Positions 2,666-5,782 of a stretch of 33,339 nucleotides of DNA are shown here, one piece after another (position 1 is the stretch's first letter; each line of letters starts with the position of its first letter). The notes beneath the pieces were generated by a model, which was given only the letters and a program-made list of their open reading frames with translations, had not been told where the DNA came from and ran no database searches. The DNA is from an uncultured Candidatus Saccharibacteria bacterium (lineage in GTDB: Bacteria > Patescibacteriota > Minisyncoccia > Phycocordibacterales > WO2-35-19), in NCBI GenBank assembly GCA_964558845.1, contig CAZLFM010000003.1, positions 1-33,339 on the forward strand. Direction: 5' to 3'. Made by a program: the position numbers and the translations under genes.

Positions 2666-3106
2666 ATGAGTCTGATACAAAACAAAAAAGCCCACTTCAA
2701 TTACGAAATTCTTGAAAAATACGAAGCCGGTATTGAGCTTTTGGGCTTCGAAGTCAAATCGGTGAGAAGCTCACAGGGCTCACTCGAAGGCGCACATATA
2801 ACAATCAGGGGCGAAGAAGCCTTTGTTACTGGTATGAATATTCCGCCCTACCAACCCAAAAACACGCCCAAAGAATACGAGCCCGAGCGTCCGCGCAAAC
2901 TCCTTTTAACCAAAAAAGAAATTGCCAAACTCGGCGAAGCCGAAGCCCAAAAAGGTTTGACAATCGTGCCACTTTCGGTGTATAATAAGGGGAGTAAGCT
3001 CAAAATAGAGATCGCCATCGTCAAAGGCAAAAAGAAATTCGACAAAAGAGAGACGATAAAAAAACGCGATACCGACAGAGAGATCAGAAGAGAAATAAAA
3101 GGCTAG
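2666..3106 (+). CDS. smpB: SsrA-binding protein SmpB
   Basis: 146 aa. Typical SmpB N-terminus (NKKAHFNYEILEKYEAGIEL.G.EVKS) and basic C-terminal tail. It lies directly upstream of the tmRNA. Confidence 0.95.
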   Translation: MSLIQNKKAHFNYEILEKYEAGIELLGFEVKSVRSSQGSLEGAHITIRGEEAFVTGMNIPPYQPKNTPKEYEPERPRKLLLTKKEIAKLGEAEAQKGLTIVPLSVYNKGSKLKIEIAIVKGKKKFDKRETIKKRDTDREIRREIKG

Positions 3107-3148: not shown

Positions 3149-3559
3149 GGGAACGATCGGTTTAGACGAATTTGTACTTTGAAAAGTGTTGTGTGGTAGA
3201 GCACCGTTAACTCTTTAATCTGACGGAAAGCATAAGTGCAAAAAACACTCTTGCAAAAGCAAAATCTGTTGTTTCTCCATTTTTTGGAGTCAACGATTTT
3301 GACTTCGCTTTCGTTCGCGCTTAATTTTAAGTAGAACCTAAGTGACGATCATCTTTCTTTCGTCCGTAGGAAAGCCTGATTGTAATAAACCGGACTAGAC
3401 TACAGTTGCTGTCTCGCAATTGTAGCGACAAATTGAGGCTTGGCTTCTCTTTATTTTGTCAGGTTCGAGAAGAAAAGCTGAAACAAACAAATCTGACTAG
3501 ACCACATAGAAATACTTTCAAAACTCTTTCGGACGGGAGTTCGATTCTCCCCGTTTCCA
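3149..3559 (+). ncRNA. ssrA: tmRNA (SsrA)
   Basis: The 5' GGGAACG pairs with the 3' CGTTTCC, including a G3:U70 pair (alanine identity). T-arm GGGAG-TTCGATT-CTCCC, discriminator A. The 5' GGTTTAGACG resembles the conserved GGAUUCGACG. An internal tag frame ends ...GVNDFDFAFVRA-TAA at 3322-3324. The resume codon is uncertain, with GCA candidates at 3238, 3253 and 3259. No CCA is encoded. Confidence 0.85.
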
Positions 3560-3619
3560 CAAAAAGTCCTTATTTTCCAACATATTTTTATACCCAAACA
3601 TTACAAAATCAAAAAATAC

Positions 3620-3647
3620 TTGACAGATTTTGTATATGTGCTATGAT
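3620..3647 (+). promoter_or_regulatory. Sigma70-type promoter with extended -10
   Basis: TTGACA (3620-3625), a 16-nt spacer, then TGcTATGAT (-10 hexamer 3642-3647). The predicted start is near 3654. Confidence 0.55.
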
Positions 3648-3653
3648 TGATAG

Positions 3654-3793
3654 TGGAAGGGTTGTGGAGAGCAAAGGGCTCTCGACAAAGACTTTCGAGC
3701 CAGGTGTACCAGGATGGCCACAATGCCACTAGTACACGAAGTAAGGTTCGCGGTTCAACCCTTCCTATTCAACCACCCCCCAAGGGTGGTTTT
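3654..3793 (+). ncRNA. Candidate structured small RNA of unknown class
   Basis: Closing helix GGAAGGGTTG (3655-3664) / CAACCCTTCC (3756-3765). Internal hairpin GAGAGC-AAAGG-GCTCTC. A nested arm runs CGAGCC...GGTTCG > GTGTAC...GTACAC > TGGC...GCCA. It is bounded by its own promoter and terminator. No credible ORF is present; ORF 3406-3732 overlaps the tmRNA. Confidence 0.5.
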
Positions 3794-3801
3794 CTCATTT
3801 T
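3772..3801 (+). terminator. Intrinsic terminator, plus-strand specific
   Basis: ACCACCC-cccaa-GGGTGGT followed by TTTCTCATTTT. Read on the minus strand there is no U-tract, so it does not serve pcrA. Confidence 0.6.
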
Positions 3802-3817
3802 AAAATTCTAAAGTTTC

Positions 3818-5782
3818 TCAAAACTCTATATCCAGTAGCGGCCTACGCTTGGGTTTGTAGTCGGAGAATTCGCGCTCCAGGTATTCATCGGGGATTTCGA
3901 GCACAAATTCGGAGGGAATGTTTACTCCCCGACTGCCAAAGATGGTTCGGGTTTGGGCGTAAGTTAGGAAAAGCTTTTTCTTGGCGCGAGTCAGAGCCAC
4001 ATAGAAGAGTCGGCGTTCTTCTTCGGCCTCTTCTTGACTGACATTCTCATCACCGTCGCGATCGTGGGGGAAGAGGCCTTCTTCGAGCCCGGTAATAAAG
4101 ACATAAGCAAATTCCAAACCCTTAGAGGCATGCACGGTCATCAGGCGGACGGCTTCTTTTTCTTCTTTATCGCTATCTTGGTCGCTCGCCAGGCTCACAT
4201 CTTCCAAAAATTTCAGAGCGCCATCTTCGGGCGGCATGGCATCGTAGCGCGAAGCCAGCACAAAAAGCTCTTTCAGGTTTTCTTTGCGTTCCACATCCTC
4301 TTCGGATTTAGAAAGTTCACTCAAAATTCCAGCCTCTTGAATAATAAAATTGACGGTCTTGGAAATTGGATTGGCCAAAGAAAAACCTTTGATGCGTTTT
4401 AGGAGATTGCGAAAATTATTTAGATTTATTTTCATCTTGACCGGCAAAGTCTCTTCTTTGCCTTCGACGATTTTGAGCAGAGTCGTCTTGCCTATCCCGC
4501 GCGGCGGCACATTGATAATTCTTTTTAGATCAGAAATATTTTCCGGATTGAGTGCGTAGCGCAAAAAGGCCATCACATCTTTGATTTCTTTTCTTTCAAA
4601 AAATCTGGTGCCGAGCACGTGGTAAGGCACGCCGCGAGCCAAAAATTCTTCTTCCAGCACGCGCGACTGAAAGTTGGCCCGATAAAGCACCGCCATTTCT
4701 GAATACGGAATTCCGCGTTCGTGAAGTTCTTTGGCCTTCTCGGCTACAAACTGGGCTTCGTGATTTTCGGTCAAAGCTTCGAAGACCCCAGCCTTCTCGC
4801 CCAAACTATTACGTGTAACCAACCTCTTTTCTTGGCGCAATTTATTTCTCTCGATAATCCGATTGGCAATCGCCAAAATAGTTTGGGTCGAGCGATAGTT
4901 TTCTTCCAGAAGCACCAGCTTGGCACCAGGGAAATCTTTTTCAAAATTCAAAATGTTTTTGATATTGGCCCCACGCCAGCTGTAGATATTTTGGTCCACG
5001 TCTCCCACCACACAGAGGTTGCGCTGTTCGCCGACCAAAGAGAGGGCGATTTTGTATTGCACTTTGTTGGTGTCTTGATATTCGTCGATATGAATATACT
5101 GCCACCTCTTAGCATAAACTTTTCTTATCTCTTCCCGCTCCAAAAGTTTGGCCGCAACCAAAAGCAGGTCATCAAAGTCGAGAGCATTTTCTTTGCGCAA
5201 AGCCTTTTCGTATTCAAGCCAAACTTCACCAACCACTCCGGCCAAATAGCCTGTGCGAGAACGCGAGGCCTCGCTACTTACCTGCTCTGAATAACTTTCG
5301 GCCGAAACAAAATTACCCTTCTCTCTCGAAATAATGCCGAGGATTTTGCTCGGGTCAAAATCTTTGGGATTAAACCCAAGCTTTTCGAGCGCTTCCTTGA
5401 CCAACCTTTTGGAATCGGCTCGGTCATAAATACTGAAGTATTTACTTACCCCAACCGCTCTATAATTTTCTTTGATAATAAAAGCTCCGAGTCCGTGAAA
5501 GGTCGCGACAAAAGGCTTGCCGGTCATCGAAACAGGTGTATTGACACTCACCTCTTTGGCTAGGAGGGCGGTAATACGTTCTTGCATTTCGCGCGCCGCT
5601 TTGTTGGTAAATGTGACAGCCAAAATATTTTCTGGCGCCACCCCTTTATTGATCAAATGCAAAATTCTGTGAGTGACGGTTTTGGTCTTGCCCGCTCCCG
5701 CTCCAGCCAGCACCAAAAGAGGTCCTTCAGTCGCTTCCACTGCTTTTCTTTGGGCATCATTTAGTTCTTCCAAGTAACGCAT
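3818..5782 (-). CDS. pcrA: UvrD/PcrA-family ATP-dependent DNA helicase
   Basis: 654 aa. Motifs LNDAQRKAV, Walker A AGAGAGKT, DEYQDTN, TVHASKGLEF, and YVALTRAKKKL near the C-terminus. Confidence 0.93.
   Translation of the reverse strand: MRYLEELNDAQRKAVEATEGPLLVLAGAGAGKTKTVTHRILHLINKGVAPENILAVTFTNKAAREMQERITALLAKEVSVNTPVSMTGKPFVATFHGLGAFIIKENYRAVGVSKYFSIYDRADSKRLVKEALEKLGFNPKDFDPSKILGIISREKGNFVSAESYSEQVSSEASRSRTGYLAGVVGEVWLEYEKALRKENALDFDDLLLVAAKLLEREEIRKVYAKRWQYIHIDEYQDTNKVQYKIALSLVGEQRNLCVVGDVDQNIYSWRGANIKNILNFEKDFPGAKLVLLEENYRSTQTILAIANRIIERNKLRQEKRLVTRNSLGEKAGVFEALTENHEAQFVAEKAKELHERGIPYSEMAVLYRANFQSRVLEEEFLARGVPYHVLGTRFFERKEIKDVMAFLRYALNPENISDLKRIINVPPRGIGKTTLLKIVEGKEETLPVKMKINLNNFRNLLKRIKGFSLANPISKTVNFIIQEAGILSELSKSEEDVERKENLKELFVLASRYDAMPPEDGALKFLEDVSLASDQDSDKEEKEAVRLMTVHASKGLEFAYVFITGLEEGLFPHDRDGDENVSQEEAEEERRLFYVALTRAKKKLFLTYAQTRTIFGSRGVNIPSEFVLEIPDEYLEREFSDYKPKRRPLLDIEF

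Follow-up and report, generated by a model that had tools for sequence, protein, structure and literature searches.

Directly after the transfer-messenger RNA (tmRNA) gene ssrA, the window, i.e. the whole stretch of 33,339 nucleotides that was analysed (contig CAZLFM010000003.1), appears to carry a small RNA gene at positions 3560-3801. The RNA was named RNA-A. It is a new small RNA (sRNA) which is not in Rfam, and its kind is familiar: an island-borne, stand-alone sRNA gene. From sequence comparisons we judge RNA-A to be a genuine, independently transcribed, structured and accessory RNA gene with a probability of about 0.7. A strong extended -10 promoter would drive RNA-A from the 3560-3801 unit and the transcript would end at an intrinsic terminator. 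A model that had read the DNA letters alone (the sequence-only reading) had proposed a stand-alone RNA of unknown class. This was borne out: promoter and terminator lie on the same strand, no Rfam family matches and a second copy keeps the helices. The source genome of the window, G000, comprises 614 kb in 55 contigs (93% complete, 43% G+C), and the window is its contig 3. Relatives' genomes are denoted by G and extracted loci (Logan contigs or genome contigs) by L, each with a number. The best named matches of PcrA, SmpB and FtsH are from Candidatus Zambryskibacteria and other Parcubacteria/Patescibacteria.

The promoter agrees with the sigma-70 consensus at 11 of 12 positions, with a 16-nt spacer between the hexamers and a TG extension at 3639-3640. 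The elements of the near-consensus promoter claimed earlier are present; its notation needs correction and should read TTGACA-N13-TGc-TATGAT, with 16 nt separating the hexamers. The hexamers are conserved in L052 and L059, two related contigs introduced below, where the -10 element reads TATCAT and TAAGAT, respectively. Transcription would start near 3652-3655. At the other end, the terminator hairpin AACCACCC-CCCAA-GGGTGGTT occupies 3771-3791 and is followed by TTCTCATTTT. The consensus scan lists the terminator solely on the plus strand, as the sequence-only reading had stated. In L052 the hairpin is kept with a different, longer stem (CAGCUCACCC / GGGUGAGCUG) through compensatory changes. 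In G000 the terminator of the RNA-A unit is the first one downstream of the tmRNA, none being listed between 3562 and 3771. Because no terminator precedes the unit's own, RNA-A may additionally be produced as a 3' trailer of the tmRNA.

In the predicted transcript of about 145 nt, the first ~110 nt form a three-way junction which is made up of a closing helix P1, a hairpin P2 and a long arm P3. Within P3, positions 3690-3693 pair with 3752-3755, P3a pairs 3696-3701 with 3745-3750 and P3b pairs 3704-3709 with 3732-3737; between P3a and P3b is an asymmetric internal loop with AG opposite GAAGUAA. The Y shape described before, a short hairpin and a three-tier nested arm, was recovered in the fold. 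The 116-nt core reached -48 kcal/mol compared with -31.3 +/- 3.3 for 200 dinucleotide shuffles (z = -5.1; 0/200 as good), and the core together with the terminator gave z = -4.5. The 10-bp closing helix that had been claimed stood only in part. GGAAGGGTTG (3655-3664) is indeed complementary to CAACCCTTCC (3756-3765), yet the junction is closed by 8 of these pairs in the minimum-free-energy fold, where U3663-U3665 lengthen P2 rather than the closing helix. RNA-A is nearly all paired and no long single strand is exposed; the conserved unpaired stretches are short, namely AAAGG/AAAAG in the P2 loop, ACAAAG/ACAAAA at the junction and GA(A/G)GUAA in the internal loop.

Comparative evidence for this fold came from the sole RNA-A homologue that was found. 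By tracing the closest SmpB relatives to their contigs we reached the Logan contigs L052 (ERR10655369) and L053 (ERR10655372), which carry identical copies directly after the tmRNA. L052:1876-1982 scored 89.9 bits (E = 4e-20) with the single-sequence covariance model R1. In a model-fitted alignment of G000 and L052 (A3, 39 pairs), 39/39 pairs were standard in both sequences, 5 of them changed on both sides and 3 on one side; none was broken. In P2 two pairs changed on both sides (A-U to G-C and G-C to C-G), converting GGAGAGC/GCUCUC into GGGCAGC/GCUGCC. P3b contributed the other three two-sided changes, and P3 together with P3a the three one-sided A-U/G-U swaps. As a control the 3' partners were slid by 1-3 columns; then 30-43% of the cells paired and 0-1 pairs changed on both sides. 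Since the second copy keeps every comparable helix via compensatory or G-U-compatible changes, selection probably maintains the RNA-A fold; a comparison of two sequences is support, not proof. The plus strand would be the functional strand because the one-sided A-U/G-U swaps would become C-A mismatches on the minus strand. The distal tier of P3 is dispensable, because L052 has a 5-nt loop in its place.

Several points weigh against this reading. The reverse strand folds almost equally well (z = -5.05), albeit with a fold from which the P3 arm is absent. Of 500 column shuffles 17 equalled the observed pairing values, and the alignment was fitted with the model. Two distinct RNA-A sequences are too few for statistical covariation testing, and P1 and most of P3a are invariant, hence uninformative. 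The 'compensation' in P3b could be the replacement of one palindrome by another, i.e. a block difference beside an insertion/deletion. The similarity of the 5' part of the two cassettes could stem from recent transfer alone, without selection. Finally, no partner or target is tied to RNA-A. Table 1 lists the features of the locus.

Table 1. Features at and around RNA-A (window coordinates).
Feature	Position	Strand	Basis or remark
tmRNA gene (ssrA)	3149..3562	+	Rfam RF00023 at 123.6 bits; ARAGORN tmRNA with tag peptide
Whole 242-bp cassette	3560..3801	+	insertion/deletion relative to same-genus G002; window aligned with G002 and L052
AT-rich region upstream of promoter	3560..3619	+	with promoter about 90% identical in L052; kept in L059
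sigma-70-type promoter, TTGACA (3620-3625) and TATGAT (3642-3647)	3620..3647	+	consensus scan
P1 5' strand (GGAAGGGU)	3655..3662	+	pairs with 3758-3765; minimum-free-energy folds; invariant in L052
P2 hairpin, UGU-G-GAGAGC, loop AAAGG, GCUCUC-G-ACA	3663..3687	+	fold
P3 arm, three tiers	3690..3755	+	fold
Distal tier of P3 arm, including hexaloop CACAAU	3710..3731	+	
P1 3' strand (ACCCUUCC)	3758..3765	+	folds and L052 comparison
Intrinsic terminator, 8-bp stem, loop CCCAA, U-rich tail	3771..3801	+	consensus scan
Right-hand junction sequence AAAATTCTAAAG	3802..3813	+	common to G000, G002, L052 and L059
pcrA/uvrD helicase gene	3818..5782	-	convergent; outside the RNA-A unit

Does RNA-A belong to a known class? 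With Rfam 15 and a 301-nt region no family matched RNA-A at its gathering score nor at E <= 10; two matches at E = 8 (Gut-1 and sroH) were at chance level, both on the minus strand over the terminator. It is highly improbable that RNA-A is a divergent housekeeping RNA missed by Rfam, be it the 4.5S RNA of the signal recognition particle (SRP), 6S RNA, RNase P RNA or Y RNA. Such an assignment would draw on size and strong promoter, which suit 4.5S RNA, and on the seemingly empty slots of G000, which has no Rfam match for SRP, 6S or RNase P RNA. Yet same-genus genomes with a completeness of 92-98% do not have RNA-A, nor does any of the 38 other genomes of the family. Small SRP RNA (RF00169) resembles RNA-A as a stand-alone, highly paired RNA of about 110 nt with a strong promoter; RNA-A differs in that it has no cmscan match and no helix 8 motifs, is not conserved in relatives and resides in a genome without Ffh/FtsY. 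The earlier statement that RNA-A is not SRP RNA was confirmed: neither RF00169 nor RF01854 matched in the genome, and a GNRA-capped helix 8 is missing. As for the protein partners in G000, PF02978 and PF00448 revealed no SRP54 or M domain, and neither an SRP-type P-loop nor a DTAGR motif was present in the six frames. Among 24 relatives and 80 genomes of the class, too, neither Ffh/FtsY nor SRP RNA was detectable. Loss of the SRP in Parcubacteria has been published, ffh and ffs being undetectable there (Nelson and Stegen, 2015, PMC4508563). SRP RNA is excluded more firmly by the absence of Ffh/FtsY than by inspection of motifs.

The two further exclusions of the sequence-only reading also held. 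RF00013 did not match, and a ~110-nt three-way junction contrasts with the ~180-nt rod with central bubble of 6S RNA. The two share that they are stand-alone, structured, non-essential and abundant-looking, and protein binding, the mode of 6S RNA, is also the one favoured for RNA-A. For RNase P RNA, RF00010 had no match in the region or the genome, P4 motifs are lacking and the expected size is three times that of RNA-A. Y RNA was rejected on account of the missing Ro/TROVE protein (PF05731) in the genome. An Hfq-dependent sRNA was rejected as well, there being no Hfq in the genome, and so was a CsrA sponge; the one CsrA-like stretch, in a frame of 377 aa, was below threshold.

The adjacent gene, pcrA, is convergent, as had been claimed. 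An orphan riboswitch or attenuator would have to control, by ligand, antisense read-through into pcrA. The layout, a P1-closed junction, a 7-nt linker and a terminator, is similar to that of OFF-switch riboswitches, and the P1 3' strand and the 5' arm of the terminator each contain TTCAACC. We nevertheless regard a riboswitch as very unlikely. No known aptamer family matched at E <= 10, and among the known riboswitch and ribozyme classes of Rfam 15 no model matched at RNA-A beyond chance level. By inspection a convincing antiterminator is missing: the P1 3' strand could form only 4 pairs with the 3' arm of the terminator. The downstream gene is pcrA in G000 and hicA in L052, convergent in both, and such rarity is unexpected for a ligand sensor.

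Equally, a small protein gene was considered. Open frames exist, i.e. a 54-codon TTG frame at 3647-3811 and a 29-codon ATG frame from 3714. They are not preceded by a Shine-Dalgarno sequence, and the ATG lies within the distal tier that is missing from L052. The frames differ or close between the copies: of the two open frames in L052, one is interrupted by a stop in G000, and the other ends in the RNA body of L052 while G000 continues frame-shifted. No frame is shared by the G000 and L052 copies, in agreement with the earlier claim that no coding frame is plausible. Substitutions are compensatory in stems, not synonymous. We consider coding of a small protein exceedingly improbable.

RNA-A appears to be a rare accessory gene, not a housekeeping gene, at the hyper-variable flank 3' of the tmRNA. 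The sequence-only reading had located it in the smpB-ssrA neighbourhood. The unit does adjoin the tmRNA, beginning directly after its 3' end; it is, however, not conserved there but is a 242-bp presence/absence cassette. The order smpB-ssrA-sRNA is not conserved: RNA-A is missing in the congeneric genome G002, and L059 has a different RNA. In G002 the tmRNA end ...TCTCCAC is joined directly to AAAATTCTAAAG and the 3' end of pcrA, and all of 3560-3801 is missing. The boundaries of the cassette are ambiguous by a few A residues (CCAC/AAAA at the left, TTTT/AAAATTCTAAAG at the right). With model R1 no RNA-A copy was found elsewhere in G002 or in two other congeners. The covariance models R1 and R2, used across family, order and class, detected RNA-A in 0 of 38 family, 150 order and 150 class genomes. 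One match in L051 (19.8 bits) was rejected; it is inside a coding region and has no promoter or terminator. BLAST of the unit against 40 relatives matched the promoter part only, at unrelated loci without a known RNA family, and against phages and plasmids it returned chance matches only. Scans with exact patterns gave 0 and then one chance match, in a high-GC contig, for metagenome contigs, one chance match in a Lewinella metagenome-assembled genome for genome contigs, and 0 in two scans of viral contigs.

Absence of further copies bears on the question whether the locus is a palindromic mobile element acting at the DNA level, similar to miniature inverted-repeat transposable elements (MITE) or repetitive extragenic palindromic (REP) elements, with inverted repeats that yield the fold only incidentally. 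G+C amounts to 51-59% in the core compared with 43% in the genome, and the presence/absence polymorphism is in line with mobility. Against this, the unit is single-copy in G000, where nhmmer found only the promoter elsewhere, and no copies exist in relatives. G-U pairs and asymmetric loops set the three-way junction apart from a simple inverted repeat, the unit has its own promoter and terminator, and beyond the A-run there is no clear target-site duplication. A mobile element of this type is thus very improbable.

The cassette itself seems to travel. The tmRNAs of L052 and G002 are 99.5% identical, though G002 is without the cassette and L052 has it. Between L052 and G000, identity is 67% for the tmRNA, 84% for smpB and 90% for the cassette 5' region plus promoter. 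Because the similarity of this non-coding 5' part exceeds that of the adjoining tmRNA and smpB, the cassette probably passes between lineages by recombination or horizontal transfer, and by these routes it would spread. After AAAATTCTAAAG, L052 runs into a hicA/hicB-like pair, not pcrA (L052:2033-2549, minus strand; hicA-like with 76 aa and hicB-like with 93 aa, both named by sequence inspection).

An alternative occupant of the site is present in L059 (Logan ERR4450735). In the same tmRNA background this contig has the same 5' region, the promoter through the -10 element and the same 3' trailer (TTTCCTTTTATATAAATTCAAAAATTCTAAAG), and the body in between is an unrelated string of hairpins of ~340 nt. 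This different RNA was named RNA-B. It is found at L059:3612-3955 and at L062:1378-1715 (G020:C22) as a string of GC-rich hairpins from promoter to terminator (~340 nt; z = -6.0 for the fold of the L059 body). A core of ~100 nt is strongly conserved: CUAUGGA..GUGGYGAAGUAGGGARAGCGAUCCGAGAGAUCUGCU.GUCCGCCC.AAAA.CCAGCGCAAACUU. In G020, which belongs to another genus, RNA-B is accompanied by a homologous promoter region and trailer, shows compensatory changes and is near a tRNA gene. RNA-B had no match in Rfam, and among 38 other genomes of the family only G020 carries it (1/38). RNA-A and RNA-B have in common the 5' region, the promoter, the 3' trailer, the insertion point, rarity and absence from Rfam. 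They differ in that RNA-B is a ~340-nt hairpin string without significant sequence similarity to RNA-A. That RNA-A is a shortened RNA-B was rejected, local alignments being no better than with shuffled sequence (p = 0.2-0.7); one hairpin looks alike in both and homology is not claimed. Directly upstream of RNA-B, at L062:1135-1285 (G020:C22), another unit of ~140 nt ends in a terminator (GGCCAAGT..ACTTGGCC TTTT); it had no Rfam match.

Possibly, the site after the tmRNA is a swappable 'RNA expression slot' with alternative structured cargoes, RNA-A, RNA-B or none; we hold this further-reaching idea to be rather doubtful. The scaffold of such a slot would be formed by the ~85-nt 5' region with the strong promoter and the U-rich 3' trailer and would be exchanged horizontally among Zambryskibacteria-like Parcubacteria. 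The swap points of the cargoes would be the transcription start and the position right behind the terminator stem. If this were true, the cargoes would constitute a novel type of RNA gene, mobile and protein-free, perhaps with a role in conflicts with phages or hosts. A shared promoter and trailer carrying alternative RNA bodies is the unusual aspect of the locus, and more alleles are needed to establish it.

What follows the tmRNA is generally variable. In 27 relatives the DNA at this place comprises terminators, GIY-YIG genes, tRNA-like repeats and ends of serine-recombinase genes, and other SmpB relatives likewise have different DNA there. In L066:1784-3484 (Logan SRR6488410) a large serine recombinase gene with the domains Resolvase, Recombinase and Zn_ribbon_recom ends at the tmRNA 3' end; similar gene ends after the tmRNA are in G014, G018, G027 and G034. 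With a recombinase gene in this position, the tmRNA gene would seem to be an attachment site for integrative elements in the family. Assemblies tend to stop in this region: the contig of the closest PcrA relative (L049) stops 4 nt past the pcrA stop, those of the closest FtsH relatives (L064 and L065) break inside smpB, and G020:C22 breaks just after RNA-B. Breaks at smpB, at the pcrA stop and at RNA-B fit strain heterogeneity at RNA cassettes.

Such a hotspot requires that one more explanation of the RNA-A locus is weighed: a non-functional scar, left at the tmRNA 3' end by an integrative element or recombination, in which sequence resembling promoter and terminator surrounds GC-rich palindromes by chance. 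The very varied content of the hotspot would be compatible with a scar, as would the rarity of RNA-A, the similar folding of both strands, a possible block replacement in P3b and the fact that the insert is missing in G002 without visible consequence. A scar is nevertheless unlikely. The tmRNAs of the two lineages are 67% identical, yet 8/8 varying pairs stay paired, and the G-U/A-U swaps are strand-specific and make sense at the RNA level. Promoter hexamers, TG extension and terminator hairpin have been maintained, the last by compensation, and the scaffold is intact in three alleles.

A number of other elements were observed around the tmRNA of G000 and its relatives. The 3' part of the smpB coding sequence contains a 12/12 sigma-70 promoter (TTGACA-18-TATAAT; window 2957-2986), which is kept in G002 and L052 and presumably is the tmRNA promoter. 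A conserved element of ~150-190 nt downstream of the tmRNA has GTGGAGA at its start and TCTCCAC at its end, with GGGAATCGAA in between. It is present in G005, G011, G012, G025, G029, G033 and G035 (L015, L020, L028, L036, L018, L030 and L031) and is tandemly duplicated in G011 and G025. Its ends look like a 7-bp closing stem of the acceptor type, the final 7 nt being a copy of the tmRNA 3' end. The element had no match in Rfam; a tRNA-like RNA or a scar of an integration would be conceivable. In several genera (G004, G007, G016 and L054/L055) the tmRNA terminator is followed by the conserved motif GACTATA(A/T)TTTTGTAGGACCCTGAGT(T/C)TATCGAAGGG. A further promoter, conserved family-wide including its spacer (AAATACTTGACAGATTTTGTnnnTGTGCTATACT), precedes varied short units which end in terminators (L002-L013 from G003, G005, G010, G013-G016, G021 and G024, and G000:C12:14867). 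Some of these units look like structured RNAs (L011, L012), others hold open reading frames of 16-23 codons with a Shine-Dalgarno sequence (L004, L006); none matched Rfam. Lastly, in L064:391-3609 (Logan SRR33452760), and also in P0341 and P0352, ftsH carries an intein containing a LAGLIDADG domain. The L064 FtsH (1072 aa) is 100% identical to that of the window (637 aa) over the aligned part, and the window copy is without the intein.

The closest known systems are island-encoded stand-alone sRNA genes at tRNA and tmRNA integration hotspots, e.g. the Salmonella island sRNAs of the Isr group. RNA-A resembles these in having its own promoter and a Rho-independent terminator, a length of roughly 100-150 nt, a strain-variable presence in the variable DNA beside ssrA and neighbours which include toxin-antitoxin and recombinase genes. 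It differs in that no integrase or island is attached, the insert has only 242 bp and the host is without Hfq. Further, RNA-A is almost fully paired without an obvious seed, and promoter and trailer bear alternative bodies in relatives. A second comparison concerns the orphan structured-RNA motifs from comparative genomics, of which those of Weinberg et al. in 2017 are reportedly an example. Promoter, terminator, compensatory changes and an origin in metagenome-derived genomes are alike; RNA-A, with two sequences only, is far below the number which defines such motifs.

Concerning function, the tmRNA is the only constant neighbour of RNA-A. Binding of a protein is favoured over base-pairing or antisense action because the RNA is nearly all paired, Hfq and CsrA are absent and no protein-coding neighbour is constant. 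As a tentative guess, RNA-A may serve some protein as a structure-specific ligand, scaffold or decoy, and conflicts of mobile elements with their host are a possible setting.

The genomes of Parcubacteria and other bacteria of the candidate phyla radiation are tiny and contain very little non-coding DNA; to our knowledge almost nothing is known about the regulatory RNAs of these bacteria. At present RNA-A is a well-defined lead, a family of two sequences, and not a discovery. Although it combines strong expression signals with a fold on which selection probably acts, it is dispensable, and lineages probably exchange it. The three alleles, empty, RNA-A and RNA-B, in near-identical backgrounds constitute a natural experiment on the function and movement of RNAs. 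At the site after the tmRNA one could study how RNA genes move without protein-coding cargo.

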